In this document: positions 17,240 to 31,629 of the stretch, piece by piece
How positions within the stretch are numbered: the stretch's first letter is position 1
Layout of the letters: each line of letters opens with the position of its first letter
Virus record (IMG/VR): IMGVR_UViG_3300027896_005002
Span: 59,488-123,487 of that record
Direction: 5' to 3' (one strand)
Origin: a virus
Length of the DNA: 64,000 bases
Position numbers and translations under genes: made by a program
Notes under the pieces: model-generated
What the model was told of the DNA's origin: nothing
The model's database searches: none
What the model saw: only the letters and a program-made list of their open reading frames with translations

Positions 17240-17260
17240 ATATTTACAATCTAATCTAAA

Positions 17261-17296: not shown

Positions 17297-17454
17297 AATT
17301 CTTATATATAAGCCCTGTTACACTATGTGGCTCCTCTTGCTGTACTAATCGTAATACGCATAGATTTGACTACCACGAGTAACTTTATAAAATTATAATG
17401 CATATTTATCCTTTTGAGTAATAATCAAGTAAAAAGTCATAGATGGCCATTTTA

Positions 17455-18057: not shown

Positions 18058-18114
18058 TGAACATCACTCATCAAATCTAAAACAATAGTATCATTGTCAT
18101 CAAATATGTCATTT

Positions 18115-18369
18115 TCATACAAAACATGAAAAACAATCGCCAAATTCATTTTCAATCGACCAATTTAACTTTGCAAGTGCTTTTGCATCATCCTCCGTTA
18201 ATTTATCAATAATATCATTTACATCAACTGAAAAAATGACATCATGTTCTGCACCTTCAATAAGCCTTTCAGTATATTTTGACAAAATCTTAAGTCCTTG
18301 AAAAGCATTATCACCTTCCCAACTGGATTCAGTACTCTTAAAAATTTGTTTTAATTGTTCTCTAGTCAT
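18115..18369 (-). CDS. hypothetical protein
   Basis: ORF track. Confidence 0.2.
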   Translation of the reverse strand: MTREQLKQIFKSTESSWEGDNAFQGLKILSKYTERLIEGAEHDVIFSVDVNDIIDKLTEDDAKALAKLNWSIENEFGDCFSCFV

Positions 18370-18386
18370 AATCCTCCATTAATGCA

Positions 18387-18593
18387 TTATAAAATTACTA
18401 AATCTTTATATTTACGAAAATTTCGCAAAACTTTTTTATCACATTGACCAAAAACAAATGTTTTTCCAGGACGTAAGTTAATTGTCCCATCATCTATTTT
18501 GATTATATAAGATTGTTTTCCTGTATTAATGACTTTAATTTCTTTGTCACAAATCTTAATTACTTTGTCCTGAACCTCAAATACAACTTCCAT
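18387..18593 (-). CDS. hypothetical protein
   Basis: ORF track. Confidence 0.2.
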   Translation of the reverse strand: MEVVFEVQDKVIKICDKEIKVINTGKQSYIIKIDDGTINLRPGKTFVFGQCDKKVLRNFRKYKDLVIL

Positions 18594-18601
18594 TGTTTTT
18601 C

Positions 18602-19057
18602 CTATTGTTGCTCAATTATTTCATCTACCCCTTCATCAAGACTTGGCTCTTCAAACTTTGCAGTCATCTTATCAATTACAGTTTGCCATTGTTCTCTTGA
18701 TATATTTCTAGAATCTAACATTCTATAACCTAAGGGATTTGGCTTTTTACAATATACAAATATTCTTTTATCAAAAGCTTTACAATGCGATAACCAAGCT
18801 GCACGATGCTGTTTATCAATATTAGTTTCATCAATTATCACATTAAATCCATTAACAATAGCCTTTTCAAGACATGTAATCGTCATTTCATGAACAAGAG
18901 GTTCTAAATTTTCAGTGTACAAATAATATCCATTTATCATTTGTCGAAATGAATCTCTATTAACAATTACTATATTTGGCTCTTCTTTAACTTTCATACG
19001 AGACCACGTACTCTTACCTGAGCCTGGAAGCCCAATCATTATATAAACTATTTTCAT
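18602..19057 (-). CDS. polynucleotide 5'-kinase (T4 Pnk kinase-domain-like, P-loop)
   Basis: IGLPGSGKSTWSR Walker A; VNRDSFRQ; IIDETNIDKQHRAAW parallel T4 Pnk motifs (GCPGSGKSTWAR, NRDDYRQ, DTNLNPERRLAW); no fused phosphatase domain. Confidence 0.6.
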   Translation of the reverse strand: MKIVYIMIGLPGSGKSTWSRMKVKEEPNIVIVNRDSFRQMINGYYLYTENLEPLVHEMTITCLEKAIVNGFNVIIDETNIDKQHRAAWLSHCKAFDKRIFVYCKKPNPLGYRMLDSRNISREQWQTVIDKMTAKFEEPSLDEGVDEIIEQQ

Positions 19058-19272
19058 TAATTTTTCCTAAAATATTTCATTGTATGCCATATTATATATA
19101 AAAAAGTAAAAACTATTACTGGCACAATCATTAATTTAAAAGTAAACAGCATCATCCTCAAGCTTGCAACAAACACACTAGACAATATCATTAAAACAAA
19201 AGCTGCAAGAAATAATGAACATACAAAAAATAACATTTTTAAAAATATATTAGGTTTTTTCATACTATCCAT
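19057..19272 (-). CDS. small membrane protein (2 TM)
   Basis: Hydrophobic stretches FFVCSLFLAAFVLMILSSVFV and MIVPVIVFTFLYII. Confidence 0.25.
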   Translation of the reverse strand: MDSMKKPNIFLKMLFFVCSLFLAAFVLMILSSVFVASLRMMLFTFKLMIVPVIVFTFLYIIWHTMKYFRKN

Positions 19273-19636
19273 CCTTTTTTTGTAATGAAAAAATATTCAT
19301 TCTTAAAATATATTTTTCATCAGGTAATGAAGGTTTAAAATTCGTATATAAAGCATTAATATCAATCTCGTGGATTGTATAAATAATAGGCCATATTTTC
19401 AATATTAATTTTGGACACCATCGTTTTTTAAAAGCTTGCCACCAATCTCGAGGATATTTTATTACTTTTTTTGTTACATTTTCTCCCCATAAAAAACCTT
19501 GTATACGTAATTCTAATTCTTTAGCAAAAACCTCTGTAATATCAAATTTTTCAAAACAAAAATATCTAGAAAATACTTTTGTAAATGCTATTTGAATTTT
19601 TTGAAGTCGAATTTCTTCAGAACAAAAATTATTCAT
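19265..19636 (-). CDS. hypothetical protein
   Basis: ORF track. Confidence 0.2.
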   Translation of the reverse strand: MNNFCSEEIRLQKIQIAFTKVFSRYFCFEKFDITEVFAKELELRIQGFLWGENVTKKVIKYPRDWWQAFKKRWCPKLILKIWPIIYTIHEIDINALYTNFKPSLPDEKYILRMNIFSLQKKDG

Positions 19637-20568
19637 GAAGTAATATTAGACCTTAATGTAATATATGGTGTAGTCAAAGTTAAAGGATCTGGCATTGTCC
19701 AAAGTAGTCTACCAAGCTCATCGACAGATTGATATGCTGCAGTATTAATAAAATGCCACGTTCGCACATCATCTGCTGGATCATTAGCATTTTGTTCTGA
19801 CATTGATTGATCTCTATAAGCCAATCCTATACCTGCACCAGTAGCAACGCTTGGTGTTCCTCTAGCTGTTTCTGCACCTCTATATCCATTTATACCTCTC
19901 ACAGTCGGTGATGCAGGAGTTGACATAGCCTCATTCATTTTTTTCCAACCACGTTCTTCCAATTTTGCTATTCGATTATGAATTCTGTCTCTTTGATACA
20001 TTACATTATCATGTAACACATAAAATATTTTTTGTTTACAATGATCGATAGCATTAATTTGTGATTCTAACAATTTATCAGAAAATAGAGGATTATTTAT
20101 ATAGGCAAGACCACAACAAGAGAGATCAACATTAGACATTATACTTATTAACGCAGATACGGCTTCAGAATCATTTTTAAATTTTTTTCTCGGTCTTATT
20201 ATTTGAACAATTGCATTGTTTCGTTTAAAAGTCCACGGTTGATTTATAATTTGTAATCCCAAATACATTGCAGCAATATCAAAATCAGGCCCAGGAAGCT
20301 GAACGAATCCACAAGCAATCAATCTATCATATATTCTTCTTGCTGACCGTGGCAATGCCATTATGTCTACGTCGTGTATCTTAAGATCAGCCAAACTATC
20401 CCTGACAGCGCCACCAAAAATAGCTGCATCAGTGTCAGACAATAAACCATCAATATCACCATCAAGATAATCTGACATAGCTTTCCGTATCTTAATGACA
20501 TCTAAATCATAATCATTTCGAACTTTAACTACGTCATCATTCATATTTCTTCCAGACATAAATGACAT
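19633..20568 (-). CDS. nucleotidyltransferase, tRNA CCA-adding-enzyme head-domain-like
   Basis: IFGGAVRDSLADLKIHDVDI matches the class II CCA-adding/poly(A) polymerase motif GGxVRD...DxD; C-terminal region divergent and GC-richer. Confidence 0.45.
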   Translation of the reverse strand: MSFMSGRNMNDDVVKVRNDYDLDVIKIRKAMSDYLDGDIDGLLSDTDAAIFGGAVRDSLADLKIHDVDIMALPRSARRIYDRLIACGFVQLPGPDFDIAAMYLGLQIINQPWTFKRNNAIVQIIRPRKKFKNDSEAVSALISIMSNVDLSCCGLAYINNPLFSDKLLESQINAIDHCKQKIFYVLHDNVMYQRDRIHNRIAKLEERGWKKMNEAMSTPASPTVRGINGYRGAETARGTPSVATGAGIGLAYRDQSMSEQNANDPADDVRTWHFINTAAYQSVDELGRLLWTMPDPLTLTTPYITLRSNITS

Positions 20569-21187
20569 TCTTCGTCGACTCTAAAGACCTACTAAATAAC
20601 CACGGAAATCTATACTCTTTATGCGACAAATTCAAAATCTTCTTCTTTGCGTGCACTGTCTCATGACCAACCATTATATATCTATCAACATTCTTTATAA
20701 CCCATTCTTCATCTATGCCAAACATGTTACCACCATTATCATGTTCAGCTTCATTATATTTATGAGTAATCCAACATCCAATGACGGTCTTAGGTCTATA
20801 TTTTTTTATAGCTGCAATACCATCAAGCTTAATAACATCGTCAGGATATTTAGTTGTCGGCTGACGCATCATCGTGTAATAAGCTTTTATCTCTGGAGTC
20901 TCCATGTACCTTGAATCTGTAGCTGGAACTCCAAGACACCTCGCTAATGCACCATGACCTGCACCAATCTCTATCGTAGTCGTAAGATCTATTTCCTGTT
21001 TAAACCAATCCACTAATTCAATGGTCGGAAAACAATAAAATCCGTTTTTATGTCCAAATAATGCAAGATGTGTTTGAGGAATTTTGGATAATACAGAAAC
21101 AGGAACTACTTTCAACAGATCATTGTCTAACAAAACATGATCTAAATAAGAAACATCTTCATTTACAAGAAAAGCTGCCATAATCAA
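20537..21187 (-). CDS. class I SAM-dependent methyltransferase
   Basis: IEIGAGHGALARCLG glycine-rich SAM-binding motif I. Confidence 0.45.
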   Translation of the reverse strand: MIMAAFLVNEDVSYLDHVLLDNDLLKVVPVSVLSKIPQTHLALFGHKNGFYCFPTIELVDWFKQEIDLTTTIEIGAGHGALARCLGVPATDSRYMETPEIKAYYTMMRQPTTKYPDDVIKLDGIAAIKKYRPKTVIGCWITHKYNEAEHDNGGNMFGIDEEWVIKNVDRYIMVGHETVHAKKKILNLSHKEYRFPWLFSRSLESTKNVIYVWKKYE

Positions 21188-21198
21188 CCTTAATTTAA

Positions 21199-21282
21199 TG
21201 CTCGAGACCGGAATCGAACCGGTATGGAATTGCTTCCGAAGGATTTTAAGTCCTTTGCGTCTACCTGCTTCGCCACTCGAGC
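21199..21282 (-). tRNA. tRNA-Leu (anticodon UAA), class II
   Basis: acceptor gctcgag/ctcgagc, anticodon arm aagga-cttaaaa-tcctt, long variable arm cggaagcaattccata, T-loop ttcgatt. Confidence 0.7.
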
Positions 21283-21555
21283 TTAACCTTCATTTGTAGA
21301 TCTACCTGTACCTTCACAAAAAGTACATTTCTTCCCAGGTCGAAATGGTTCAGGTAAAAGCCAACCACGTCCTTCACATTTTTTACAATTAAAATATAGC
21401 TTACGTATATTAAACCATTTCATAATAAAAAACTGTATAAAAAGATATCTCCATTGACCAAATTGCCATTTAATTCCCCACGGAAACATTTTGTCATAAA
21501 ATGATTTAGGTTCAACGGGTCTTCTAAATTGAGGTAATCCAAATGGAGGTAACAT
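21283..21555 (-). CDS. small Zn-ribbon protein
   Basis: CKKCEGRG...CTFCEGTG. Confidence 0.25.
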   Translation of the reverse strand: MLPPFGLPQFRRPVEPKSFYDKMFPWGIKWQFGQWRYLFIQFFIMKWFNIRKLYFNCKKCEGRGWLLPEPFRPGKKCTFCEGTGRSTNEG

Positions 21556-21750
21556 TTATGTGTCCTTTGGAAAAATTATCGGAAATAATAAACAACAAAT
21601 ACAAACCAAAATAAAAACAAAAAAGACAACAGGCCACAATAAAATGATTTCAACACTATCTTTCGTAGTCTGAGCTTGTAAAATCAATTTATTATGATAC
21701 AAGAAAAATAGAATTAAAACGACTATTAACCAAATGTATAAAATAATCAT
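21556..21750 (-). CDS. small membrane protein
   Basis: Two hydrophobic helices. Confidence 0.2.
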   Translation of the reverse strand: MIILYIWLIVVLILFFLYHNKLILQAQTTKDSVEIILLWPVVFFVFILVCICCLLFPIIFPKDT

Positions 21751-21777
21751 TTAAGGCCTATCATCACATTAAAAAAT

Positions 21778-21857
21778 AGGAGAGGAGGGATTTGAACCCT
21801 CATCTGCCACATACCGTTACGATTATCCGCCTTATAAGAGCGGCTCGGTACTCTCCT
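21778..21857 (-). tRNA. noncanonical tRNA-like gene, anticodon UAU (Ile/AUA), reduced D-arm; same architecture as 8152-8230 and 9170-9252
   Basis: acceptor aggagag/ctctcct, ta-ccgag, anticodon arm ccgct-cttataa-ggcgg, ataatcgtaacggtatgtggcagat, T-arm gaggg-ttcaaat-ccctc. Confidence 0.45.
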
Positions 21858-21858
21858 G

Positions 21859-22209
21859 TTATTTTATTGATCCTGGTTTATAAATATCGCCATTTCTATT
21901 CAGCACATTAAACTGTACAATAGTACTTCTATATGTTTTATATGGACCTTCCATCATCATTGTTTCTTCTCGTTCTTTAATTATTCTTTTCTCTATTGTC
22001 GTTAACAAATGAATTTTAACAACAATACATGGTAACGGACATATATACAATGAATTATCTTTAACACTCCAAAAAAGTCCGACCCAAAAATCATACCATG
22101 CAAAAAATAACTTACACTTAATTATCGGTCTATCAATAAAAAGATGATATTTAACAATCAACAAAAAAGTCTTCCATTTCAACTTAATTATCGTCAATCT
22201 CTTTAACAA
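21859..22209 (-). CDS. hypothetical protein
   Basis: ORF track. Confidence 0.2.
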   Translation of the reverse strand: MLKRLTIIKLKWKTFLLIVKYHLFIDRPIIKCKLFFAWYDFWVGLFWSVKDNSLYICPLPCIVVKIHLLTTIEKRIIKEREETMMMEGPYKTYRSTIVQFNVLNRNGDIYKPGSIK

Positions 22210-22441
22210 ATTTAAGATATCCTTTTAAAAACTTTTTAACTGATCTACCCTTTTCATCAAAAACTTCAACACCATAATTATCTTGCTGCTGATTAAAACG
22301 AATCTTTGTCATTCGACAAAAATATTTATTTCCTTGTTTATCCTCAACTATAGAAGTCTTTTTTGCTGCTGCAGATGCTGCCCCTCTGGTGCATTGTATT
22401 GAGGTCACACCATCTTTTTCACTAATTATTGCTTCTCCCAT
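22184..22441 (-). CDS. hypothetical protein
   Basis: ORF track. Confidence 0.2.
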   Translation of the reverse strand: MGEAIISEKDGVTSIQCTRGAASAAAKKTSIVEDKQGNKYFCRMTKIRFNQQQDNYGVEVFDEKGRSVKKFLKGYLKFVKEIDDN

Positions 22442-22641
22442 TAAATTTCTACTCCTATTGGTTCTTTGTTTTTCTGCAATCGTTGCATTTTTACAACACT
22501 ATCTTCAGATAAATTTAATTTACTGATTACGTCTTTAGCTTTACGACGAGCATCAACATCATCAGTTTCTGAAAATGGTATTATAATCTTTAATTGATAG
22601 TCCATAAGTTTTTCCAAGAAAAGAGGACAACCTTGTCATTT

Positions 22642-23154
22642 TTAATTTAATGTTTTTCGATCTTCGTAACAATGTTGAATAATACATGCTGACTTATCTA
22701 ACAATGACTGAATCTGCTTAGAAACATCCTTCAATTGCTTATAATAATCCATCACTTCTTTAAATTCAGGATTACTATCTAATTGTAAAACAACTGCAGA
22801 ATTTAAATCTTTCTCAGTCAATGCAATTATAGTCTTACTCGGAACATTTTTACAAACAAAAATATTTGCTCCCCATATCATTCCCATCAATCCTTTAAGC
22901 AAATTCTCTCTCTTAGTCTCCGGTTCAATAACATCCCTACCAAACTTTCTAAAATCCGAATAAACTACTGCATTAGTGATCAAACAATCAACTCTTGTAT
23001 CTTCTTCTCTTTCAAGCGCAGCAAACAAATCAGCTAGAACATCAGGAACAACATGATCAAAAGCAGTCTTAACATAACCTTTTACATTCACAAATTGTAA
23101 AAACTTATCCCAAGACTCGGTTACTTTTGAATAATAAAAAAATACATCATCCAT
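22642..23154 (-). CDS. hypothetical protein
   Basis: ORF track. Confidence 0.25.
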   Translation of the reverse strand: MDDVFFYYSKVTESWDKFLQFVNVKGYVKTAFDHVVPDVLADLFAALEREEDTRVDCLITNAVVYSDFRKFGRDVIEPETKRENLLKGLMGMIWGANIFVCKNVPSKTIIALTEKDLNSAVVLQLDSNPEFKEVMDYYKQLKDVSKQIQSLLDKSACIIQHCYEDRKTLN

Positions 23155-23235
23155 AATTATTCTTTCCAGACAAAATTATCCTCCTTTCCTAAAGATAATA
23201 TATGTCATTAAAAGAATAAATTTATGGTATGGAAT

Positions 23236-23589
23236 TCAAACTTCTATAATTATGTTATTCCATGCACCCGGACAAATCGTAGCTGTCGGCAGCAAACTTG
23301 CCATATTCTGAGCACCAACAGAATTAAAACTATGTATTATTATATTCTTAGGCTGTCGTCCTGGGTGCGCCTCAAGCCATTGCGCTACCTCATAACCAGT
23401 ATCTTTCCCAGATTTAACATATGTCTGACCGCCCAAGTCGTGATCAAGAAATAGATATTGCCAAGTGCTCTCAATCAAATGTTGTATTGTACTTTTAACT
23501 GTTGAAGTTTGTACAACTTCATGCCCAATTAATTTTTGTCGAAAAATCTTTTGTCTATCATCATCATCATCTAAAATTAATATTCTCAT
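23236..23589 (-). CDS. CheY-like receiver-domain-like protein (weak)
   Basis: MRILILDDDDD N-terminus, LFLDHDLGG, IIIHSFN resemble a receiver fold. Confidence 0.3.
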   Translation of the reverse strand: MRILILDDDDDRQKIFRQKLIGHEVVQTSTVKSTIQHLIESTWQYLFLDHDLGGQTYVKSGKDTGYEVAQWLEAHPGRQPKNIIIHSFNSVGAQNMASLLPTATICPGAWNNIIIEV

Positions 23590-23591
23590 TT

Positions 23592-24443
23592 TTATTTCTC
23601 AAATTTATAATAAAAAAACCAACCATTAGCGGATTTTCGTGTACCTTTTAATACTGTTATAATATTTGATGGATAAGTATTTAATTGCTTAGCTGCTTGT
23701 TTTTTGTTCGAAAATTCTAATTTTTGACCATTTTTTACAGCAAAAAATATTTTTCTCTTAAGTTGTTCAACAAAATCATCATACATTTTTTTAGTTATAT
23801 ACTTAAAAGAAAATATCCAATTATTTTTAGATTTAACTTTTCCATGCAAAATACAACTAATAAACCTTTGACTAACCTTAGTATAAATAGATGCTTCGTA
23901 TTGTGTTTTAAATTTCTTTAATTCATTAACATTTCTTGCATAAAAAGCTTTTCCACCATGACACTTACTATGCTTAATTCTTTCTTCAATTTTATTAAAC
24001 CTTTTATTCTGAGATTTACCCTGTTTTTTTCTGGCTTTATCTGACTTAAAATAATTTATTAAACCCAAACTTAAATTTTTTCGTGCTTCTAAATTAAACT
24101 TTCCATTACTTCCGCCTTCTTTTAAATTATATCCAAAAGTTTTATTAGTACTATTAAACTTTTTAATATATTCTTTTTCTTTTTTATCAAGTTCTAATTG
24201 TGTATTGCATTTACATAATATGTCCCAAGTAAATTTATCAAAACCATATTTCATTAAAGCATTATGAAAATATGATTGATTTTTTGGCTTTTTTATTAAA
24301 CTTTTCAAACAAACTCGATGATGAGCTTTAATTCTACCTTGTAATGATCGCCATGTTTGACCAATATACACTTTATTTGTTAAAATATTTGTAGCTTTAT
24401 AAATGATACTTTGTTCATACAAGTATTCATCTAAAATATTCAT
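23592..24443 (-). CDS. GIY-YIG homing endonuclease
   Basis: IYKATNILTNKVYIGQT ... R...H ... GYNLKEGG = GIY-YIG catalytic motifs; basic C-terminal DNA-binding region. Confidence 0.65.
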   Translation of the reverse strand: MNILDEYLYEQSIIYKATNILTNKVYIGQTWRSLQGRIKAHHRVCLKSLIKKPKNQSYFHNALMKYGFDKFTWDILCKCNTQLELDKKEKEYIKKFNSTNKTFGYNLKEGGSNGKFNLEARKNLSLGLINYFKSDKARKKQGKSQNKRFNKIEERIKHSKCHGGKAFYARNVNELKKFKTQYEASIYTKVSQRFISCILHGKVKSKNNWIFSFKYITKKMYDDFVEQLKRKIFFAVKNGQKLEFSNKKQAAKQLNTYPSNIITVLKGTRKSANGWFFYYKFEK

Positions 24444-25495
24444 TTACCTGTCTTATCTAAGTATACTGGATCTCGTTGCTTTAAAAATAACCGGCCAAAA
24501 CCAACAATATATTTCTCTATCATCGGCTTTATCACTATGCCCTCTCTCAACCTATCGATTAATACACTCTTTCCATTTGAAGCAACTTGGACTGATCGGC
24601 CATCTAACCAATCTTTAAAGATCACATTACTCGCTATAATTGGTACAAATCTCTCTCTCAAACCAATCTTATCCAAGAGAACATCAATCTCTCCAAAATC
24701 AATAGCTTTACTATTGACTTCAATATCAAAAATCTTTATCGTATGCTTTTTCAAATTATAATAATTACCCTGTACTTTAGGCCCGATTATCTCACCCCGA
24801 ATCGTAATCGCACAATTCGGAAAATAATTGACCTTCAAATTACTCACTGCGTCTATCAAACCATCATTACGAGCGACCTGCCAAAAAGTATGCTCCTCAT
24901 GATCAGGCAAATTTATGATAGCATGACCGTGCGTGCACACGCTCATCTTATCATCTACATCAATGAAGACAGCAGCATTAGTGCCTTCTATTTTCTCAGA
25001 TATGAACACCCTCTCATTCATCAATTGCTCAACGATATCAGGATGTCTATCGCAGCCTTCAATATCATAATTATAAACCATCTCCGGTCGCTGTACCAAA
25101 TTACCAGTGCTCGTCATAACTTCTGGTGCTTCATACTTTGTCACACTCAAAGCAGCTGTTAGATCTACCGGTAAAACGTCCACCTTAAGATAAGCCTTAA
25201 CACTAGACGCAGATGTGACATATCCTTGAGAAATTTCATTTCTTAATTTACAAGTTTTAATTCTATTTTTATCTTTACCTGATAAAAAATTCTGAATATT
25301 TTGTTGTAATATAAATTCCTGAGGCAGTATAGAATCTATTGGAAAATAAACTACACTATCTCCAACTTTATATAAATCTTTTTGGACAACAAATTGATAT
25401 GTCATCCCTTCAACTTGACCAAGTTCCAATTTATCAGCATTTGGATGCGGATAAATTTTAGATATTTTTTTTACTTCCACAGCAAAAGTACTCAT
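24440..25495 (-). CDS. ATP-dependent RNA ligase (Rnl2/Rnl5-like nucleotidyltransferase core) fused to N-terminal Trbp111/CsaA-like tRNA-binding OB domain
   Basis: N-term VEVKKISKIYPHPNADKLELGQVE (tRNA-binding OB signature hPnADkL); motif I EKIEGTNAAVF (KxxG), motif IV REGIVIKP (EGxxxK), motif V LFLKQRD...K. Confidence 0.55.
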   Translation of the reverse strand: MSTFAVEVKKISKIYPHPNADKLELGQVEGMTYQFVVQKDLYKVGDSVVYFPIDSILPQEFILQQNIQNFLSGKDKNRIKTCKLRNEISQGYVTSASSVKAYLKVDVLPVDLTAALSVTKYEAPEVMTSTGNLVQRPEMVYNYDIEGCDRHPDIVEQLMNERVFISEKIEGTNAAVFIDVDDKMSVCTHGHAIINLPDHEEHTFWQVARNDGLIDAVSNLKVNYFPNCAITIRGEIIGPKVQGNYYNLKKHTIKIFDIEVNSKAIDFGEIDVLLDKIGLRERFVPIIASNVIFKDWLDGRSVQVASNGKSVLIDRLREGIVIKPMIEKYIVGFGRLFLKQRDPVYLDKTGK

Positions 25496-25525
25496 TTTAA
25501 TCCCTTCCCTAATGTCATTAACTAA

Positions 25526-27031
25526 TCATAGTTGTGTAACAAGTTGTTTAGAAATAATTTTTTTAATCATACGTCTAGTAATTTTATATTTTTTAATTAA
25601 TACTCCAATCTTAAAACCATTTTGATAATCATTAATTATATCATTGATTCTGAATGAAACATTTCTATCACACCATCTCTTTTTAATAAAATATCCACTA
25701 TTTTTTATACTAATATTATTATCTAAAAACAATTGTTTAACCTTTTTATTCAACACATTATATTTTCTACAAATTTTACTTAATGAATTATTATTTTTAT
25801 AATCATCAATTATTTGTTTTGCAAGATCACTTGTTATTATAGTTTTTATTTTGTAAAATCGTTTTATAGTATACTTTGTATTGTACTTAATAAATCTTTT
25901 TACTTGTGTTTGTGATACATTCCATAATTTTGCAAGTATAGCAAATGTTCCACGTTTATTAATATCAACTTTTTCAAGATCATTTAATCTATTTTGACGT
26001 AATTCATTTCTTATTTTTATAATTTTACTTATTTTTTCATTTTTTCTTTTAGTAATCTCTGCTAGATTATTAAGCGCTACCAACTGTTTATCAGTATATT
26101 GTGAAATTAAAACATCTCTTTTTTCAGATGATTTAAGAATAGATTTTATTTCTTGAAACTTATCTTTTGAATTATAACAAATTGCTCGCCAACAAATTCT
26201 AAATACCGTAATATTATTTAATTTAAGCAATGCATCTTTCTTTTTATCAATTTCCTGACGTCGCTTATATCTATAATGTTGTTGACCGTCAATTTCAATA
26301 GCTAATGATAATTTAGGAAAGAAAAAATCTACTCTATAAACAGAAAAAGGAAATTCAGTATAAAAATCATCATTAAGTTTATATCCTTCATTAATTAAAA
26401 ATTTAAAAAAAGTTTTCTCAGCATATGACTGATTGTCTTGTTTATACCAAGAATTAGCTCTATTTTCAGCATGCATTATTTTACATTTTTCAGACCACTT
26501 TTTTCTTGATTCATCTGACCACTTAAAAGTATATTTTTTATGAGCTAATTTCGATGCATCTGCGACAGATCGTCTATAACATTTTAATGCAAAATGTATG
26601 AGACCTGTATCAAAACCTTGATTATGTAATTCACGCGATGATAATCCAGAATCATATAGATTACGAATTTTTATAACATCATTATCTTCATAACATTTAT
26701 GTCGTTTATAATTACCACTATTAAATGATCTATTACATTTTTTACAAATAATTTTTTTATCACTAAAACTATTTATTGCTTTTTTCCTATATATTTTAGT
26801 ATGTGCAATTTTTAATGTATCACTAGCAGTTCTTTTCAAATCTTTTATACATCTATTTATTTGATTTCGTGTATAACCTATTTGAATTATATCTTTTATT
26901 AATAATCCAGAATTATACAAATCTCTAATTTTCTGTCTATCGTTCTCAGATATCTTACAATATTTCTTATGTGAAAAAAAACTTCCAGGATTCGTAAAAA
27001 AATTACCGCAATTCTCGCAACATAATTTCAT
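25526..27031 (-). CDS. homing-endonuclease-like protein: Zn finger, multiple HTH (NUMOD-like) repeats, DUF559/Vsr-like nuclease domain
   Basis: CENCGNFF, IRDLYNSGLLIKDI / IRNLYDSGLSSREL repeats; YRVDFFFPKLSLAIEIDGQQHY...DKKKDALLKLNNITVFRI. Confidence 0.6.
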   Translation of the reverse strand: MKLCCENCGNFFTNPGSFFSHKKYCKISENDRQKIRDLYNSGLLIKDIIQIGYTRNQINRCIKDLKRTASDTLKIAHTKIYRKKAINSFSDKKIICKKCNRSFNSGNYKRHKCYEDNDVIKIRNLYDSGLSSRELHNQGFDTGLIHFALKCYRRSVADASKLAHKKYTFKWSDESRKKWSEKCKIMHAENRANSWYKQDNQSYAEKTFFKFLINEGYKLNDDFYTEFPFSVYRVDFFFPKLSLAIEIDGQQHYRYKRRQEIDKKKDALLKLNNITVFRICWRAICYNSKDKFQEIKSILKSSEKRDVLISQYTDKQLVALNNLAEITKRKNEKISKIIKIRNELRQNRLNDLEKVDINKRGTFAILAKLWNVSQTQVKRFIKYNTKYTIKRFYKIKTIITSDLAKQIIDDYKNNNSLSKICRKYNVLNKKVKQLFLDNNISIKNSGYFIKKRWCDRNVSFRINDIINDYQNGFKIGVLIKKYKITRRMIKKIISKQLVTQL

Positions 27032-27215
27032 TATATTCTCCTTTTAGAATATAATAAATTATAAACAAAGAATTAATTCCAATTACATTACAACCGCTAT
27101 TCAAATGTAATAAGCAGACGGACAATATTAACAATTAAATAGTGATGTAAAAAAGTAATTAACCATAGGTCAAAAATTACTAATATATTTAGTTAAATCT
27201 TCAAAACTATAAAAT

Positions 27216-27302
27216 GGGCCGGGAAGGATTTGAACCTCCAGTGTTTAGCACATATGGCACTTGATCTACAGTCAAGCGGTTTCACCATTCACCCACCGAC
27301 CC
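27216..27302 (-). tRNA. tRNA-Tyr (anticodon GUA), class II
   Basis: acceptor gggtcgg/ccggccc, anticodon arm cttga-ctgtaga-tcaag, long variable arm tgccatatgtgctaaacact, T-arm ggagg-ttcaaat-ccttc. Confidence 0.7.
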
Positions 27303-27307
27303 TTAAT

Positions 27308-27568
27308 TCATTTTCTTATTACTTTCCATACCGGTGTTGGCTCATAACTTACCAGCTCACCATTACGCCAATAATATCGTGGATGAGGATCATAGAGAAA
27401 TTTAAAATCGCAAATGTTATAAGGATCATTGAATTTTCGATAAGCATTCCCATTCGGGACATCTTCAATTCTCCGAATAACTTTCGAATAATTTTTCTTC
27501 CAAAATTTTCTTTTACCAGCATTCTTATAACCATCTGTGAACCACGGCGCGCGATACGATCTGGACAT
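27308..27568 (-). CDS. hypothetical protein
   Basis: ORF track. Confidence 0.2.
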   Translation of the reverse strand: MSRSYRAPWFTDGYKNAGKRKFWKKNYSKVIRRIEDVPNGNAYRKFNDPYNICDFKFLYDPHPRYYWRNGELVSYEPTPVWKVIRK

Positions 27569-27634
27569 ACATTGCTCCTTGTAAAGGTGTTACAACATAT
27601 GTTCCTCCTTTGTTAATTATTTAATGTCTTTGGT

Positions 27635-27707
27635 GTGGGTGGTCGGACTTGAACCGGCAGCGTCTGACTTGGAAGGACAGCATTCTAGCCAATTGAATTA
27701 CACCCAC
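27635..27707 (-). tRNA. tRNA-Gly (anticodon UCC), slightly imperfect stems
   Basis: acceptor gtgggtg/cacccac, D-arm attc-aattggcta-gaat, anticodon arm ctgtc-cttccaa-gtcag (one U-U), T-loop ttcaagt. Confidence 0.55.
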
Positions 27708-27728
27708 GAATTTATCATCAATTTATAT

Positions 27729-27803
27729 TGGTAGCCCATAGCGGAATCGGACCGCTGAATCCTCATAGAAAGTGAGGTGTCTTAACCACTTGACGAATGG
27801 GCC
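27729..27803 (-). tRNA. tRNA-Glu (anticodon UUC), CCA encoded
   Basis: acceptor ggcccat/atgggct, anticodon arm cctca-ctttcta-tgagg, T-loop ttcgatt, aCCA. Confidence 0.65.
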
Positions 27804-27812
27804 GTGATAATC

Positions 27813-27890
27813 AGGAGCGAAGAGACTCGAACTCTCATTTTCAACCAAATTACAAGTATATGGTTTTGGAGACCACACTGTTACGCTCCT
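27813..27890 (-). tRNA. tRNA-like gene with good acceptor/T-arm but irregular anticodon region (undetermined)
   Basis: acceptor aggagcg/cgctcct, T-arm gagag-ttcgagt-ctctt; middle ccaaaaccatatacttgtaatttgg has no clean 5-bp/7-nt anticodon arm. Confidence 0.35.
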
Positions 27891-27899
27891 ACAAAATTT

Positions 27900-27971
27900 A
27901 GCGGGCAAGAGAATCGAACTCTCATTCGTGTGGTTATGAGCCACATCGAGGCACCACGCCTCGCCACCCGC
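27900..27971 (-). tRNA. tRNA-Met/Ile2-like (anticodon CAU) with imperfect acceptor/T pairing
   Basis: D-arm gagg-cgtggtg-cctc, anticodon arm tgtgg-ctcataa-ccaca, T-loop ttcgatt; acceptor gcgggtg vs tgcccgc needs two G-U. Confidence 0.45.
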
Positions 27972-27978
27972 GATAAAT

Positions 27979-28188
27979 TTATATAGTAGATCCATATGCT
28001 AAAACATCCATAAATTTCTGTCTGACTGCAATTTCAAAATCAGTCATTAACTGCTTATTTTCGTAAAAACATATTCGCAAACATGTTTTGATATTTTCTG
28101 GACAATCTGAAAAATATTCATGCACAAATTCATCAACTGTCAACGGTTCTGATATTTTATCAATTATTGTTTCAACAAATTTGTCCAT
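27979..28188 (-). CDS. hypothetical protein
   Basis: ORF track. Confidence 0.2.
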   Translation of the reverse strand: MDKFVETIIDKISEPLTVDEFVHEYFSDCPENIKTCLRICFYENKQLMTDFEIAVRQKFMDVLAYGSTI

Positions 28189-28275
28189 TTAAAACAACTC
28201 CTAACTTCCTGAAAATAAACTTGAATCATAATACTCTTAACTCTTCTACAATAATCTAATTGACTATTTAACTAT

Positions 28276-28701
28276 ATGAAACATTCTCCTCATCATTTAC
28301 TACAAGAAAGACTTTACAAAAGACCTTGGCGTCTACTAATCGGCTGCATCATGCTAAACCTCACCACAAGATCTCAAGTTGATAAAGTAATCTACAAGTT
28401 CTTCAAATTATGTCCTAAACCACAAGATGCCATCAAAATTCCTAAAAGACGATTAATAAGACTATTAAAACCTCTCGGCCTCGTCAATAGACGAGTTAAC
28501 ACCATTAAAAACTTCTCAAAAGACTTTATCGAAAAAAGTTGGACATATCCAATAGAACTTTACGGTATTGGAAAATATGCCAATGATAGTTATTTGCTTT
28601 TCTGTGCAGATGTGTGGAAGAATGTCCGACCGACAGATAAAGCATTAAAACTTTATATTAAATGGCGGAGGAGACAGGAGTTGAACCTGCATGTCTGTTA
28701 A
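28276..28701 (+). CDS. HhH-GPD DNA glycosylase, MBD4 glycosylase-domain-like
   Basis: RPWRLLIGCIMLNLTT...LLKPLGL...YPIELYGIGKYANDSYLLFC closely parallels the MBD4 catalytic domain (DPWKLLIATIFLNRTS...LLKPLGLY...[20 protein letters not shown]); 3' end overlaps tRNA-Ser. Confidence 0.5.
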   Translation: MKHSPHHLLQERLYKRPWRLLIGCIMLNLTTRSQVDKVIYKFFKLCPKPQDAIKIPKRRLIRLLKPLGLVNRRVNTIKNFSKDFIEKSWTYPIELYGIGKYANDSYLLFCADVWKNVRPTDKALKLYIKWRRRQELNLHVC

Positions 28702-28748
28702 GACGATGGTTTTCGAAACCATTGCTCTAGCCATTAAGCGACTCCTCC
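28663..28748 (-). tRNA. tRNA-Ser (anticodon CGA), class II, CCA encoded
   Basis: acceptor ggaggag/ctcctcc-g-CCA, anticodon arm atggt-ttcgaaa-accat, long variable arm gtcttaacagac, T-loop ttcaact. Confidence 0.7.
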
Positions 28749-28755
28749 GAAAAAA

Positions 28756-28831
28756 TGGCGGAGCGTACGGGAATTGAACCCGTTTCCACGGTTTGACAAA
28801 CCGTAATTCTAAGCCATTAAACTAACGCTCC
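28756..28831 (-). tRNA. tRNA-Asp (anticodon GUC), CCA encoded
   Basis: acceptor ggagcgt/acgctcc-g-CCA, anticodon arm acggt-ttgtcaa-accgt, T-arm acggg-ttcaatt-cccgt. Confidence 0.75.
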
Positions 28832-28837
28832 ATATAA

Positions 28838-28924
28838 TGGCGGAGGGTGAGGGACTTGAACCCCCAGGTCCTTTCGGATCCGCTTTTCAAGAGCGACACG
28901 CTACCAATTACGCTCTAACCCTCC
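28838..28924 (-). tRNA. tRNA-Ser (anticodon UGA), class II, CCA encoded
   Basis: acceptor ggagggt/accctcc-g-CCA, anticodon arm tcgct-cttgaaa-agcgg, variable arm tcc-gaaa-gga, T-arm ggggg-ttcaagt-ccctc. Confidence 0.7.
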
Positions 28925-28929
28925 ATAAT

Positions 28930-30045
28930 TTAATTATATTCTCTTATAAAACAATTCTCATTATAAAAATTCAACATATACTTTTTCATCCATTTACTTA
29001 CTTTTTGATGTTTTATTCCTATCAATTCTGCTACTTTAGAAACCCAACCGAATTTAGAAAAACTAATTTTAGATTGTAAAATAGCATTAATTTTACTTTC
29101 AATATTTATTTGTTTTATTAATTTTTTATTTTCTCGTTTTAATTTTCTTTGATTGATTCGTTGATTTTGTTTTTTTACTTTCTGATTCATAATATTTTTA
29201 ATGCCAACAGTATATTCATATTCAAACACTTTTCCATTTTTATTAAATTCCTTTATTTTAGTCAATAAAGATTTTATATCAAATCCTCGTCTATTTAAAT
29301 ATTTTTTAATTTCTTTTATTGTTGTTCTAGTAACTAATCTAATTATATAACCATTTGATCTAAATGCTTGTAATTGATTATTACACTCGTCTGTCAATTG
29401 TCCTTTTACTTCATAAATTTTTCCATTTATTTCAAAATCATTTCTATATGTACGATCATTATATTGAACGGTTATATTCTCATAATTAAAATTAATATTC
29501 TTCTTTGCTAAAAATAATGCAAAAATAAACTCGTATGAACTTCTTAAAAAAAACTTTTTATTATTATAATAAAAATAGCATCTTTTAAATTTATTTGATA
29601 TTGGCGGCTGTCTTTTACCTTCTTTATATAATCTTTTTAATGTTTCAGAAAGCTTTAAATTCGCTGCTTTATTTTTCTTATCATCTTGTCGCCAATTTAA
29701 TAATGGATTATCTGTATTAGAATTGTACGAGTTCCATCTATCCTTCATTCTTATTTTCATAGTTTCAGCCATCTTCATAATTGAAGGATGTGTTTCTTTT
29801 GTTAACCCTTTTAACCACGGTTTACTATGATCAAATCTATCACCGGGTCTAACATCTATGCCCTGTTGTTTTAATCTACAATAATAAACATGACCACCAA
29901 CTTGTGATCCTTTTTCAAATTGTCTTCCACAAATTTCACAACTGAACATAAAATCCTCCTTTTTAATAGGAAGATTTATAAACAGAATAGAAATTCGCAT
30001 GTCTACCAAATATAATAAATTGCGCGCGATGAGATTCGAACTCAT
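28930..30045 (-). CDS. homing-endonuclease-like protein (C2H2-type Zn finger + putative PD-(D/E)XK nuclease domain)
   Basis: CEICGRQFEKGSQVGGHVYYC Zn finger; NDRTYRNDFEINGKIYEVKGQ resembles D...E.K nuclease core; sits between tRNA clusters like the other HE genes. Confidence 0.4.
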   Translation of the reverse strand: MSSNLIARNLLYLVDMRISILFINLPIKKEDFMFSCEICGRQFEKGSQVGGHVYYCRLKQQGIDVRPGDRFDHSKPWLKGLTKETHPSIMKMAETMKIRMKDRWNSYNSNTDNPLLNWRQDDKKNKAANLKLSETLKRLYKEGKRQPPISNKFKRCYFYYNNKKFFLRSSYEFIFALFLAKKNINFNYENITVQYNDRTYRNDFEINGKIYEVKGQLTDECNNQLQAFRSNGYIIRLVTRTTIKEIKKYLNRRGFDIKSLLTKIKEFNKNGKVFEYEYTVGIKNIMNQKVKKQNQRINQRKLKRENKKLIKQINIESKINAILQSKISFSKFGWVSKVAELIGIKHQKVSKWMKKYMLNFYNENCFIREYN

Positions 30046-30094
30046 ACCTGCTGATTTCTAAGACCAGTGCATCTACCAATTGTGCAACGCGCGC
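30021..30094 (-). tRNA. class I (short variable arm) tRNA with Leu anticodon UAG
   Basis: acceptor gcgcgcg/cgcgcgc, anticodon arm ctggt-cttagaa-atcag, 5-nt variable caggt, T-arm atgag-ttcgaat-ctcat. Confidence 0.55.
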
Positions 30095-30105
30095 ATAAAA
30101 TTAAA

Positions 30106-30180
30106 TGGGAATGATAGGATTCGAACCTACAAACATCTAAATTTTGAATTTAGCGACTCTACCAATTGGTCTACATTCCC
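30106..30180 (-). tRNA. class I tRNA with Leu anticodon CAA
   Basis: acceptor gggaatg/cattccc, D-arm gac-caattggtaga-gtc, anticodon arm ctaaa-ttcaaaa-tttag, short variable, T-arm gtagg-ttcgaat-cctat. Confidence 0.55.
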
Positions 30181-30307
30181 AAAAATTGTCTTTATTGAAT
30201 GTTCTTAATAACTTCATGTCGTAATTGGATTTTAACCAATGTCTTTAGACAAAATGTGCTGACTTATTGCACCATACGACATTGCCGATAATTTCAAAGA
30301 ACAACTT

Positions 30308-30385
30308 ACTTAATTTGGGGTGACGGAAGGGATTTGAACCCTCGATCTTCAGAGTCACGATCTGACGCCTTAGACCAGACTGGGC
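30308..30385 (-). tRNA. tRNA-His-like (anticodon GUG), atypical long D-loop and C33
   Basis: acceptor ggtggcg/cgtcacc, anticodon arm tcaga-tcgtgac-tctga, T-arm gaggg-ttcaaat-ccctt. Confidence 0.4.
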
Positions 30386-30401
30386 TACCGCCACCATAAC
30401 T

Positions 30402-30767
30402 TTATGCTATTACAAGTTTTCTTTCGGGCCATAATACTTTTTGTGTTTGTTTTTTCTGTTGGCCCCATTTAATTCTTAACTCAGATTCTATGTCAATAAC
30501 ATCGACTATTTTTCCGTCTTTTAGATATTTTCGAAGACCTCCAGTTCTTGGAGGAAGTTTTTGGATGTTTTCTATTAGTGTTAAGTCAACTTTTATTCTA
30601 CTAATATCAGTTTTGATATCCAAACTGTCAATTATTTCACCATTTTTCAATTCAATAATTTCATCGTTTGGTTGCCAGAAATCCGTTTCCTCATTAGGAT
30701 CATCTCTTCGTAAATAAAACCCATTTGGCATCAATTTCAATTCATCGTATGAATATTGTTTGAACAT
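30402..30767 (-). CDS. hypothetical protein
   Basis: ORF track. Confidence 0.2.
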   Translation of the reverse strand: MFKQYSYDELKLMPNGFYLRRDDPNEETDFWQPNDEIIELKNGEIIDSLDIKTDISRIKVDLTLIENIQKLPPRTGGLRKYLKDGKIVDVIDIESELRIKWGQQKKQTQKVLWPERKLVIA

Positions 30768-30786
30768 GATGTCCTCCTTATTTATA

Positions 30787-30859
30787 TGGGCTCGACTGGA
30801 TTTGAACCAGTAATCTTCCGCTTAAGAGGCGGTAGCTTTAACCATTAAGCTACGAACCC
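30787..30859 (-). tRNA. tRNA-Lys (anticodon CUU)
   Basis: acceptor gggttcg/cgagccc, D-arm agcttaatggttaaagct, anticodon arm (a)ccgc-ctcttaa-gcgg(a), T-arm ctggt-tcaaatc-cag. Confidence 0.6.
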
Positions 30860-30875
30860 TTGTTTTTAAAATTTA

Positions 30876-30947
30876 TGGGTCCGACCGGATTCGGACCGAT
30901 ACAGATAGATTAAAAATCTACTATGCTACCAGTTAACATCACGGACC
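30876..30947 (-). tRNA. tRNA-Lys (anticodon UUU)
   Basis: acceptor gggtccg/cggaccc, anticodon arm gtaga-tttttaa-tctat (G-U closing), T-arm atcgg-tccgaat-ccggt. Confidence 0.5.
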
Positions 30948-31030
30948 CTAATTTGTCTCGTTTGCCAGATTTGTCACTGTCCATTAGGACCCGCCTTTGT
31001 TAAGTTTTCGTTAAGTATCTAAAATAAAAA

Positions 31031-31305: not shown

Positions 31306-31629
31306 TTATCGTAGATTGGCCAATTTTGTTTTTTCTTCTTCCGAAAATGGACAGACACACTTTGACCATGATCTCAATGAACCTATTTTGTGTGAATCTC
31401 CAGAAAAAACCTTTTTATGTTCTCCACAAGTATGCCATGTATGACCGTTCTTGCAATGCTTCTCGCCAAGACGGCATCTACATGTCATATTAGTATGGAT
31501 ACCACAAATTGGGCAATTACTATGATCTTTTAGATAATTAGGATGAATAGATAATACTTCACCGTTACTAGCAATATCTTGATTTGCAAATTTTAAAAAT
31601 TCAGATTGAATAGTAGCTAAATGTTTCAT
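31306..31629 (-). CDS. MKHLATIQ-family protein 1: conserved N-terminal module + Cys/His-rich Zn-binding C-terminus
   Basis: MKHLATIQSEFLKFA...; CPICGIH...CRCRLGEKHCKNGHTWHTCGEH. Confidence 0.5.
   Translation of the reverse strand: MKHLATIQSEFLKFANQDIASNGEVLSIHPNYLKDHSNCPICGIHTNMTCRCRLGEKHCKNGHTWHTCGEHKKVFSGDSHKIGSLRSWSKCVCPFSEEEKTKLANLR

Follow-up and report, generated by a model that had tools for sequence, protein, structure and literature searches.

An Rnl5-family RNA ligase gene within a tRNA array of a huge phage

In the stretch of viral DNA analyzed here (the window, 64,000 nucleotides; positions 59,488 to 123,487 of IMG/VR record IMGVR_UViG_3300027896_005002), one open reading frame joins a nucleotidyltransferase (NTase) ligase domain to an N-terminal OB fold resembling those of tRNA-binding proteins. 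A first-pass annotation read this combination as an unusual architecture, in which a ligase is physically targeted to tRNA as a dedicated tRNA repair or splicing enzyme. The locus thus raises the question of what kind of ligase this is, and what its N-terminal domain and its neighbors indicate about its role. We conclude, with a probability of roughly 85%, that the ORF encodes an Rnl5-family RNA ligase of a huge phage, which probably mends cut RNAs. The features considered are collected in Table 1.

Table 1. Coordinates of the ligase gene, its domains and neighboring features in the window
Feature	Coordinates	Strand	Basis
Calcineurin-like metallophosphoesterase	6298..7017	-	PF00149 1.2e-8; phrog_1649 1e-29
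tRNA array enclosing the ligase, cREC and kinase genes	12885..30948	-	ARAGORN; Rfam
Stand-alone polynucleotide 5'-kinase-like P-loop protein, 151 aa	18602..19057	-	PF13671 (AAA_33) 3e-19; phrog_505 4e-24
cREC protein, 117 aa (receiver domain, predicted to process cyclic phosphates)	23236..23589	-	PF20274 7.3e-17
Free-standing homing endonuclease, GIY-YIG + NUMOD	23592..24443	-	PF01541 1.4e-8; PF22083
Rnl5-family ATP-dependent RNA ligase gene, 351 aa	24440..25495	-	ORF; TIGR02306; PF21189 + PF09414; phrog_968; NgrRnl chains; AF2 model
NTase (adenylyltransferase) domain, residues 125-351	24440..25123	-	PF09414; NgrRnl alignment; invariant columns; DraRnl motif definitions
N-terminal OB domain, TRBD-like fold, residues 1-124	25124..25495	-	
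Zinc-finger/HTH + DUF559 (Vsr-like) endonuclease ORF	25526..27031	-	PF04480 3.5e-7

The ORF encodes a member of the Rnl5 family

The ligase ORF runs for 351 codons without interruption, and its protein begins with MSTFAVEVKKISKIYPHPNADKLELGQVEG. It matches TIGR02306 at 167 bits (cutoff 151.15), with residues 8-348 placed on positions 5-341 of the 341-position model. In Pfam, PF21189 ("PHA02142 OB-fold") was found at residues 6-93 (E = 2.2e-16) and PF09414 at residues 162-328, and the RNA ligase family phrog_968 was matched at 1e-43. A PDB sequence search retrieved the NgrRnl chains (E about 3e-19, residues 9-328 covered), and the family profile matches NgrRnl at E = 3e-40. Because the TIGR02306 score lies above its cutoff and the NgrRnl chains are recovered at such values, a chance match is ruled out. 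The AF2 model of the full-length protein is confident throughout (pLDDT 94) and resembles 13 NgrRnl structures at TM 0.75-0.81. Domain search and structure prediction, which had been proposed as checks, thus agree with the original assignment of an RNA ligase carrying an N-terminal OB domain related to Trbp111, CsaA and MetRS-C; the N-domain profile and hhalign comparisons given below point the same way.

The OB module precedes the NTase domain, and the protein ends at residue 351, shortly after motif IV (at 318), without a C-terminal domain. This architecture is a known trait of the Rnl5 family (DraRnl, NgrRnl), which was described in 2004-2007 and crystallized in 2015 (PMC1807946, PMC4408790, PMC7261155). 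It defines the family and, contrary to the first-pass annotation, is not unusual: PF21189 and PF09414 occur together in all 120 of the 120 best homologs. When the N domain alone was used as query, 4651 representative clusters were matched, and the best 150 of these are nearly all proteins of about 350 aa with the domain at residues 1-125. Megablast of the 20-32 kb part of the window against GenBank phages returned no match. At the protein level, identity to relatives does not exceed 31%, with huge uncultured phages supplying the best ones.

The ligase gene lies among tRNA and putative RNA-repair genes

The tRNA array contains 18 tRNAs predicted by ARAGORN and additional tRNA-like matches from Rfam, interspersed with homing-endonuclease-like ORFs (DUF559, GIY-YIG). 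Wedged between the ligase and cREC genes is the GIY-YIG gene, probably a selfish insertion; it shares 4 nt with the stop end of the ligase gene and leaves a gap of 2 nt to cREC. The DUF559 ORF directly upstream of the ligase is likewise homing-endonuclease-like and lies outside the repair chemistry; a paralogous DUF559 ORF is found at 12906-13949. A promoter and terminator scan of 22-28 kb performed no better than on shuffled sequence.

Three neighbors could supply the end-healing reactions that precede sealing. For the cREC family, cyclic-phosphate processing has been predicted, and operons shared with RNA ligases have been reported from jumbo phages (PMC7824862); the cREC protein here, whose sequence search against the PDB gave noise only, is a candidate for a 2',3'-cyclic phosphate end-healing partner of the ligase. 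The kinase-like ORF lies 5.4 kb downstream of the ligase on the same strand; phrog_505 is a polynucleotide kinase family, and in the PDB the protein best matches T4 polynucleotide kinase (1ly1/1ltq, E = 2e-12) and Pnkp1. It is a candidate 5'-OH end-healing partner. The metallophosphoesterase, 17 kb from the ligase and only loosely linked, is a possible healer of 3'-phosphate or cyclic-phosphate ends. The ligase is thus genomically linked to genes for a putative 5'-kinase and a putative 3'-/cyclic-phosphate esterase. With tRNA genes and putative RNA-repair genes of a huge phage around it, the ligase probably mends cut RNAs.

Related loci in part repeat this setting. Rnl5 lies within tRNA arrays at loci L015, L032 (19 tRNAs) and L038 (17 tRNAs), and at L032 it is directly followed by an AAA_33 kinase (PNK) gene. 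Metallophos and RlaP genes adjoin Rnl5 in a related huge phage (L007), and a LigD_N phosphoesterase and a 2H/Acb1 gene are near it at L013. The association with tRNAs is not universal, being seen as raw counts in 2/8 and 8/20 related loci, and the Rnl5 genes of close relatives lie among NAD+ salvage, NUDIX and radical-SAM genes, not tRNAs. By tblastn of 37 related loci, cREC was found only in copies of the same phage, so its linkage to the ligase is not clade-wide. The same genome carries a second Rnl5 paralog, which has DNA_ligase_A_M-like genes in its vicinity and no RNA-repair genes beside it.

These relatives without nearby tRNAs, together with the company kept by the close relatives and the same-genome paralog, would fit a general sealer of nicked RNA duplexes or RNA:DNA hybrids (acting, for instance, on phage-DNA nicks that end in a ribonucleotide, or on damaged mRNA or rRNA), for which the tRNA setting is incidental. 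DraRnl and NgrRnl do seal nicks in duplexes whose 3'-OH strand is RNA, RNA-OH/pDNA among them, and cells that lose DraRnl become sensitive to radiation. However, the tight operon with cREC, the Pnk-like kinase nearby, the recurrence of the tRNA-array placement and the adjoining PNK gene at L032 all argue against an incidental setting, and we consider general nick sealing a possible but rather doubtful account.

The N-terminal domain is a remote relative of tRNA-binding OB folds

The N domain carries the motifs HPNADKL (17-23), YFPIDS (with D54), R78, KLRNEISQGY (83-92) and TKYE (with K120). Of these, D54 and K120, which hardly vary in the family, align to D53 and K121 of NgrRnl, and the conserved R78 is the counterpart of DraRnl R79. 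Fold-neighbor comparison places the domain in the tRNA-binding-domain (TRBD) type of OB fold. NCBIfam pheT_bact matches residues 6-96 (E = 1e-3), and the N-domain profile retrieves from the PDB, after NgrRnl, only tRNA-binding domains (3bu2, PheRS-beta B2, MetRS-C and YgjH), at E values from 1e-3 (3bu2) to 0.25. The hhalign comparison with E. coli PheT residues 1-160 gave a probability of 96.6% (E = 5e-10, 33% identity, 84 columns). PF01588 has no match in the ligase even at E <= 1. PheRS B2 is the closest TRBD relative, ahead of free-standing Trbp. The kinship to tRNA-binding OB folds is therefore real but remote, and the resemblance of the Rnl5 N module to the OB domain of PheRS beta B2 was already reported by Raymond and Shuman (2007).

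Step-1 adenylylation by DraRnl and NgrRnl requires the N domain, which touches the gamma-phosphate of ATP and its metal; without the domain, a pre-adenylylated nick can still be sealed (PMC7261155, PMC4408790, PMC1807946). The residues engaging the gamma-phosphate and its metal are R4, D53 and K121 of NgrRnl and R79 of DraRnl, and tRNA binding by the N domain is not reported in the papers cited here. In evolutionary terms, the N domain derives from the Trbp111/PheRS-B2 tRNA-binding OB fold and was taken on for adenylylation, a family-wide feature that has been published before.

It could nevertheless be proposed that the Trbp111-like OB fold targets the ligase to tRNA, for example by capture of the 3'-CCA end, as part of a dedicated tRNA repair or splicing enzyme. 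Five residues of Trbp111 impair tRNA 3'-CA binding when mutated (K33, R75, F78, S82 and M85), Arg75 being the most critical, and E32/K33 contact C75 of the tRNA (PMC11286949). We mapped this pocket onto the ligase through the YgjH, PheT and MetRS-C motifs. K33 corresponds to K22, S82 to S89 and M85 to Y92, and the F78 position is taken by R85, which is Arg also in YgjH, PheT and MetRS-C. The Arg75 position is Cys82 in the ligase and V/C/A/I/L in the family, never basic. Judged from these residues, the 3'-CA pocket appears to be partly kept, with the key Arg75 absent.

The true homology to tRNA-binding OB domains, the retention in this clade of HPNADKL (where Trbp111 E32/K33 bind) and of the S-Q-G-hydrophobic motif (matching S82 and M85), and the location of the gene within a tRNA array are in line with tRNA targeting. 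There is also room for a further function, as the motifs are strongly conserved, yet DraRnl R86A, E88A and Q91A still seal nicks. On the other hand, the most important contact of Trbp111 is missing, PF01588 is unmatched, and the nearest TRBD is that of PheRS. Furthermore, Trbp111 is a homodimer formed through N- and C-terminal extensions, whereas the ligase OB domain runs into the NTase domain, and deletion of the domain in DraRnl/NgrRnl leaves step 3, which depends on the 3'-OH, intact or improved. Physical targeting to tRNA, as first annotated, is therefore unsupported, and we regard it as improbable. A role in tRNA splicing is also unlikely: ARAGORN found no intron-containing tRNAs, and thus no introns were seen that would need a protein ligase. 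An intron was found only in the tmRNA gene, and it is a self-splicing one of group I. What stands of the earlier proposal is that RNA repair is plausible, on account of the tRNA array, cREC and the Pnk-like kinase, not of the N domain.

Catalytic motifs of the NTase domain are intact, apart from a variant motif Ia

Motifs I, III, IIIa, IV and V all stand intact in the ligase. They comprise S166-E-K168-I-E170-G171 (motif I, with KIEG at 168-171), E235 (motif III), F256-D257 (motif IIIa), E318-G-I-V-I-K323 (motif IV) and K339-Q-R341 (motif V, within a conserved LKQR); motif Ia is T188-H189. Among 36 aligned homologs, K168, E170, G171, E235, E318, K339 and R341 are invariant, and K168, E170, E235 and E318 align residue by residue with NgrRnl K170, D172, E227 and E312. 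Motifs I and IV, both invariant in the family, had been recognized correctly at the outset. Motif V, then given as K-x-x-K, does exist as LKQR, but the C-terminal KTGK (348-351) is not part of it. K339 is taken as the counterpart of DraRnl/NgrRnl K326 by its position, its family invariance and the DraRnl literature rather than by direct alignment; a PDB search with the C-terminal 53 residues, aimed at comparing motif V with NgrRnl, returned only spurious WH2-repeat (N-WASP) matches. Beyond Rnl5, the NTase domain is closest to Rnl2 (E = 2e-8 by sequence, 1e-9 by Foldseek).

The basic residue of motif Ia (K186 in DraRnl, where it is essential for adenylylation, and R190 in NgrRnl) is replaced by His189. 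Of the 36 aligned homologs, at least 11 have the same His, over an identity range of 45-70%, most others having Gln-Arg. Such sharing points to purifying selection, and because the change recurs in the closest clade, His189 is probably tolerated, as a conservative deviation inside the Rnl5 family. In the N domain, the position of NgrRnl Arg4 is Thr3, so that this residue has no counterpart. Further on, Gly147 takes the place of NgrRnl Arg149, and Arg150, the family consensus residue at its position, lies three residues off. An inactive pseudo-enzyme, which H189, G147 and T3 might suggest, is very improbable given the invariant nucleophile, metal-binding and motif III/IIIa/IV/V residues, the recurrence of the His variant, the nearby Arg150 common in the family and the AF2 model confident along its whole length.

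Proposed mechanism and role

By homology to NgrRnl and DraRnl, we infer the following course. In step 1, Lys168 of motif I would attack the ATP alpha-phosphate and form ligase-AMP, with the catalytic metal held through waters by Glu170, Glu235 and Glu318, while the OB domain would close on the triphosphate and orient the pyrophosphate leaving group (Asp54, Lys120, Arg78). In step 2, AMP would be passed to the 5'-PO4 RNA end, with Lys339 of motif V and motif Ia (His189) involved, and in step 3, attack by the RNA 3'-OH would seal the break. The T4-Pnk-like kinase may phosphorylate 5'-OH ends, and ends that bear a 2',3'-cyclic phosphate may be healed by cREC and/or the metallophosphoesterase. The kinase lacks the phosphatase domain of Pnkp; 3'-end healing would have to come from one of these two.

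Judged from its context, the ligase most likely serves as the sealing step of RNA (probably tRNA) repair against RNA-cleaving defences of the host. Against this role, the characterized Rnl5 enzymes seal duplex nicks, not breaks in the anticodon loop (PMC5397189). A bolder proposal is that the OB domain of this huge-phage clade, which keeps HPNADKL and the ancestral SQG-aromatic pocket, may still hold on to the 3' ends of RNA or to the CCA tail of tRNA. A tRNA-directed ligase would then join cREC and a stand-alone Pnk kinase in a new pathway of three proteins for tRNA repair, encoded within a phage tRNA array; we hold this to be unlikely.

The ligase adds a divergent huge-phage member (about 25% identical to NgrRnl) to a family of known structure and chemistry, which alone changes little. 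Its modest value lies in the context, an Rnl5 gene placed inside a tRNA array and close to candidate genes for RNA end healing, here and independently at L032 and L038. Such phages offer a practical system for asking whether tRNAs cleaved by defence nucleases of the host are mended by Rnl5 and whether the cREC domain processes 2',3'-cyclic phosphates.

Comparison with known systems

Like DraRnl (DRB0094) and NgrRnl (PDB 5COT, 5COU, 6VT0-6VTG), the ligase consists of an embellished OB domain and an NTase domain without a C-terminal appendage, and its length matches theirs (about 340-350 aa). It shares with them motifs I, III, IIIa, IV and V as well as the N-domain residues D54, K120 and R78, and the fold agrees with NgrRnl at a TM of about 0.8, although identity to NgrRnl is only about 23-27%. 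The differences lie in motif I (KIEG with Glu, versus KLDG in NgrRnl and KLHG in DraRnl), in motif Ia (His versus Arg/Lys), in a hairpin between motifs IV and V that is 7 residues longer, and in the canonical tRNA-binding-domain HPNADKL, which is kept in the ligase clade and lost in NgrRnl (PIAGAEAIE). As early as 2007, phage members of Rnl5 had been pointed out, e.g., that of Aeromonas phage 44RR2.8t.

With the TRBD family (PF01588: Trbp111, YgjH, CsaA, MetRS-C, Arc1p-C and PheRS-beta B2), the N domain shares HPNADKL and K-x-x-K-L-R-G-E-x-S-x-G-hydrophobic. It differs by an insertion of about 16 residues (62-77), a C-terminal helical extension and the lack of an Arg75 equivalent. It is also fused N-terminally to an NTase domain instead of forming a homodimer, and its known function in the family is adenylylation, not tRNA capture.

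In T4, Pnkp and Rnl1 repair tRNA in answer to PrrC. A phage ligase and a T4-Pnk-like kinase near tRNA genes echo this logic, but the C-terminal domain of T4 Rnl1/Rnl2 is absent from the ligase. The jumbo-phage cREC neighborhoods (Iyer et al. 2021, PMC7824862) likewise combine cREC with an ATP-dependent RNA ligase in an operon of tRNA-rich large phages. The cREC partners there are Rnl1, Rnl2 and RtcB, whereas the partner here is Rnl5, and, unlike in those neighborhoods, a homing endonuclease gene separates the two.

Family assignment and domain architecture

The 351-aa ORF of the ligase begins with MSTFAVEVKKISKIYPHPNADKLELGQVEG and carries two Pfam domains, PF21189 (PHA02142 OB-fold; residues 6-93, E = 2.2e-16) and PF09414 (RNA_ligase; residues 162-328, E = 1.4e-15). 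An end-to-end match was found to phrog_968 “RNA ligase” in PHROGs (1e-43). In NCBIfam, the equivalog TIGR02306 “RNA_lig_DRB0094” spans residues 8-348 (167 bits vs. a cutoff of 151), and residues 6-96 weakly match the tRNA-binding B2 region of pheT (E = 1e-3). The only strong PDB matches are structures of NgrRnl, the Naegleria gruberi ligase (E ~3e-19, residues 9-328). Together, these Pfam, PHROGs, NCBIfam, and PDB matches indicate, far above chance, that the ORF, its OB-like N-terminus and its ligase domain are real, and they bear out the domains named in the first-pass annotation. The AlphaFold2 model of the full protein (pLDDT 94) superimposes on 13 NgrRnl structures with TM scores of 0.75-0.81, followed by T4 Rnl2 and other ligases. 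The protein adds a divergent member to the known Rnl5 family.

The first-pass annotation had also called this architecture unusual, which was mistaken, because the layout defines Rnl5. The family, founded on NgrRnl and DraRnl of Deinococcus radiodurans, consists of nick-sealing ATP-dependent RNA ligases with an N-terminal OB module and a C-terminal nucleotidyltransferase domain, lacking a C-terminal appendage, and is found in bacteria, phages, archaea, and unicellular eukaryotes (PMC7261155, PMC4408790, PMC1807946). A homolog from Aeromonas phage 44RR2.8t was already present in the DraRnl alignment (PMC1807946). Among 5.8 billion proteins, 517 relatives were found, and PF21189 and PF09414 occur together in all 120 of the matches listed. 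The N domain as query alone retrieved 4651 representative clusters (E ≤ 1e-3), and in nearly all of the best 150 the protein is 330-410 aa long and the domain occupies residues 1-125. By tblastn, 298 GenBank phage records contain a ligase match, many annotated “RNA ligase.”

Among 36 homologs of 42-70% identity, K168, E170, G171, E235, E318, K339, and R341 are invariant and F256 is nearly so. The sole deviation lies in motif Ia, where K186 of DraRnl, essential for adenylylation (PMC1807946), and its NgrRnl equivalent R190 correspond to His189. The same His in at least 11 of the 36 aligned homologs, including a paralog in the same genome (P0009), argues for a clade-specific active-site variant of Rnl5, apparently under selection, rather than decay. 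With the catalytic residues invariant and this His recurring across the clade, an inactive pseudo-enzyme is unlikely.

Origin and function of the N domain

A profile built from 29 N domains was compared with PDB, and matched NgrRnl first and then only tRNA-binding OB domains: 3bu2 (E = 1e-3), PheRS-beta B2 (5e-3 to 2e-2), MetRS-C, and YgjH. When the profile was aligned by hhalign, residues 1-160 of E. coli PheT scored 96.6% (E = 5e-10, 33% identity, 84 columns) and YgjH gave a probability of 59.5% (E = 9e-5). These profile and hhalign matches indicate that the N domain is Trbp111/CsaA-like by descent, and the hPnADkL hallmark had thus been correctly recognized.

The tRNA-binding surface is only partly kept, as judged from the 2024 Trbp111-tRNA co-crystal, where an OB domain of this type holds the terminal 3' CA of tRNA through the E32/K33 backbone, K73, R75, I77, F78, S82, and M85, with mutational severity R75A > K33A > S82A > M85A > F78A (PMC11286949). 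These residues were mapped onto the ligase via the sequences and alignments of E. coli YgjH, MetG-C, and PheT-B2. The fold and several of the pocket residues persist. In the mapping, E32-K33 corresponds to D21-K22 within HPNADKL, K73 to K80, I77 to L84, S82 to S89, G84 to G91, F78 to R85 (likewise Arg in YgjH, PheT, and MetRS-C), and M85 to Y92 (Y/L/F/I/V in the family). However, the most critical Arg, R75, is replaced by C82 (V/C/A/I/L in the family). Alanine mutants of DraRnl R84, R86, E88, and Q91, in the same motif, show unimpaired nick sealing, and removal of the DraRnl N domain abolishes adenylylation while a pre-adenylylated nick is still sealed (PMC1807946). In NgrRnl, the N domain touches the ATP gamma-phosphate and its metal via R4, D53, and K121 (PMC7261155); the alignment identifies D54 and K120 of the ligase as conserved counterparts of D53 and K121. 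From the DraRnl mutants and deletion, the NgrRnl contacts and these conserved residues, the N-domain function with the best support is catalytic assistance in step 1. The earlier proposal of tRNA targeting through the OB domain finds no support in what is known of the family, and residue conservation favors it only weakly.

Genomic context

An identical protein is encoded on three contigs, the longest being a metagenomic one of 415,903 bp, and the closest GenBank phage relatives are uncultured huge phages of 0.5-0.7 Mb. ARAGORN called 24 tRNAs in the window and Rfam 27. The ligase gene lies inside a tRNA array, near genes for a homing endonuclease, a cREC protein, and a P-loop kinase (see table). 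Iyer et al. (2021; PMC7824862) predicted that cRec processes 2',3'-cyclic phosphates and reported jumbo-phage operons linking it to RNA ligases. The window also encodes a metallophosphoesterase, an exonuclease resembling RNase T, a PTH2 peptidyl-tRNA hydrolase, and tmRNA. Because of this context, it is plausible, with moderate confidence, that the ligase seals in a phage RNA/tRNA repair pathway together with the kinase and cREC/phosphoesterase.

Features of the window, with supporting matches
Feature	Position	Strand	Remark
Ligase	24440..25495	-
Motif Ia His189 codon	24929..24931
tRNA array	12885..30948	-	Encloses ligase
GIY-YIG/NUMOD homing endonuclease gene	23592..24443	-	4-nt overlap with ligase stop
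cREC protein, 117 aa	23236..23589	-	PF20274, 7e-17; 2 nt after GIY-YIG/NUMOD gene
P-loop kinase, 151 aa	18602..19057	-	Best solved relatives T4 polynucleotide kinase (E 2e-12), Pnkp1
tmRNA gene	10119..10737	-
Rfam tmRNA	10352..10737		80 bits
Rfam Intron_gpI	10126..10367		91 bits; abuts Rfam tmRNA
Low-scoring Rfam tRNA matches	21777..21857, 8151..8230, 27812..27890	-	31-40 bits, 79-81 nt
DUF559 ORFs	12906..13949, 25526..27031	-
HNH ORF	16482..17066	-
ORF with cysteine-rich N-terminus	1521..2498	+
ORF with cysteine-rich N-terminus	28930..30045	-	Weak P22_Cro match only
Paralogous ORFs	31306..38617, 51384..52076, 61093..61569	-
Tyrosine-phosphatase-like gene	33016..33546		Among paralogous ORFs of 31306..38617
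Translation/RNA cargo	5246..5635, 4365..5270	+
Translation/RNA cargo	7014..7847, 10954..11508, 17455..18057	-

The RNA-repair theme recurs in relatives, with differing partners. In two distant IMG/VR phages, an Rnl5 gene sits mid-array among same-strand tRNAs: 19 tRNAs at L032 (10001..13522; ligase 37% identical to the query), where an AAA_33 Pnk-like kinase, a VWA protein, and NAD synthase directly follow, and 17 at L038 (1..15300; 43% identical). Elsewhere, the ligase is adjoined by Metallophos_2, Metallophos, and RlaP (L007), lies near a LigD_N phosphoesterase and a 2H/Acb1 protein (L013), or has seven tRNAs within 4 kb (L015). Many other relatives examined have no such repair or tRNA neighbors. 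The paralog P0009 (L004, 10001..11056), 68% identical to the query, lies on the same 415,903-bp contig, ~56 kb from the query ligase and outside the window; cREC and tRNA neighbors were not found there, and the gene lies near COOH-NH2_lig, GATase, GGACT, and DNA_ligase_A_M-like genes.

Other features of the window

A group I intron apparently splits the phage tmRNA gene close to the 3' end. ARAGORN called no tmRNA on the unedited window sequence; after deletion of ~237-240 nt (about 10119-10125 to 10355-10359), it called one with the tag peptide ANKIGSVFGAQFALQFAAMCAKAPAMAA. None of the three low-scoring Rfam tRNA matches was called by ARAGORN, and they may represent tRNA-like elements that have diverged or degenerated. 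The translation/RNA cargo around the array includes matches to PTH2 peptidyl-tRNA hydrolase (1.5e-32), an RNase T-family exonuclease, and a DprA-like/SLOG protein (phrog_768); two cargo ORFs look radical-SAM-like, judging from CxxxCxxC N-termini only. At least ten paralogous ORFs share the N-terminus MKHLAxIQxEFLKxA...W..L...EQ..YL..HPKSKR and have variable C-termini.

Homing-endonuclease-like ORFs are dispersed among the tRNA genes, comprising the DUF559, HNH, and GIY-YIG/NUMOD ORFs and two that resemble them only in a cysteine-rich N-terminus. This arrangement is similar to that of T4, whose tRNA region contains the seg genes.
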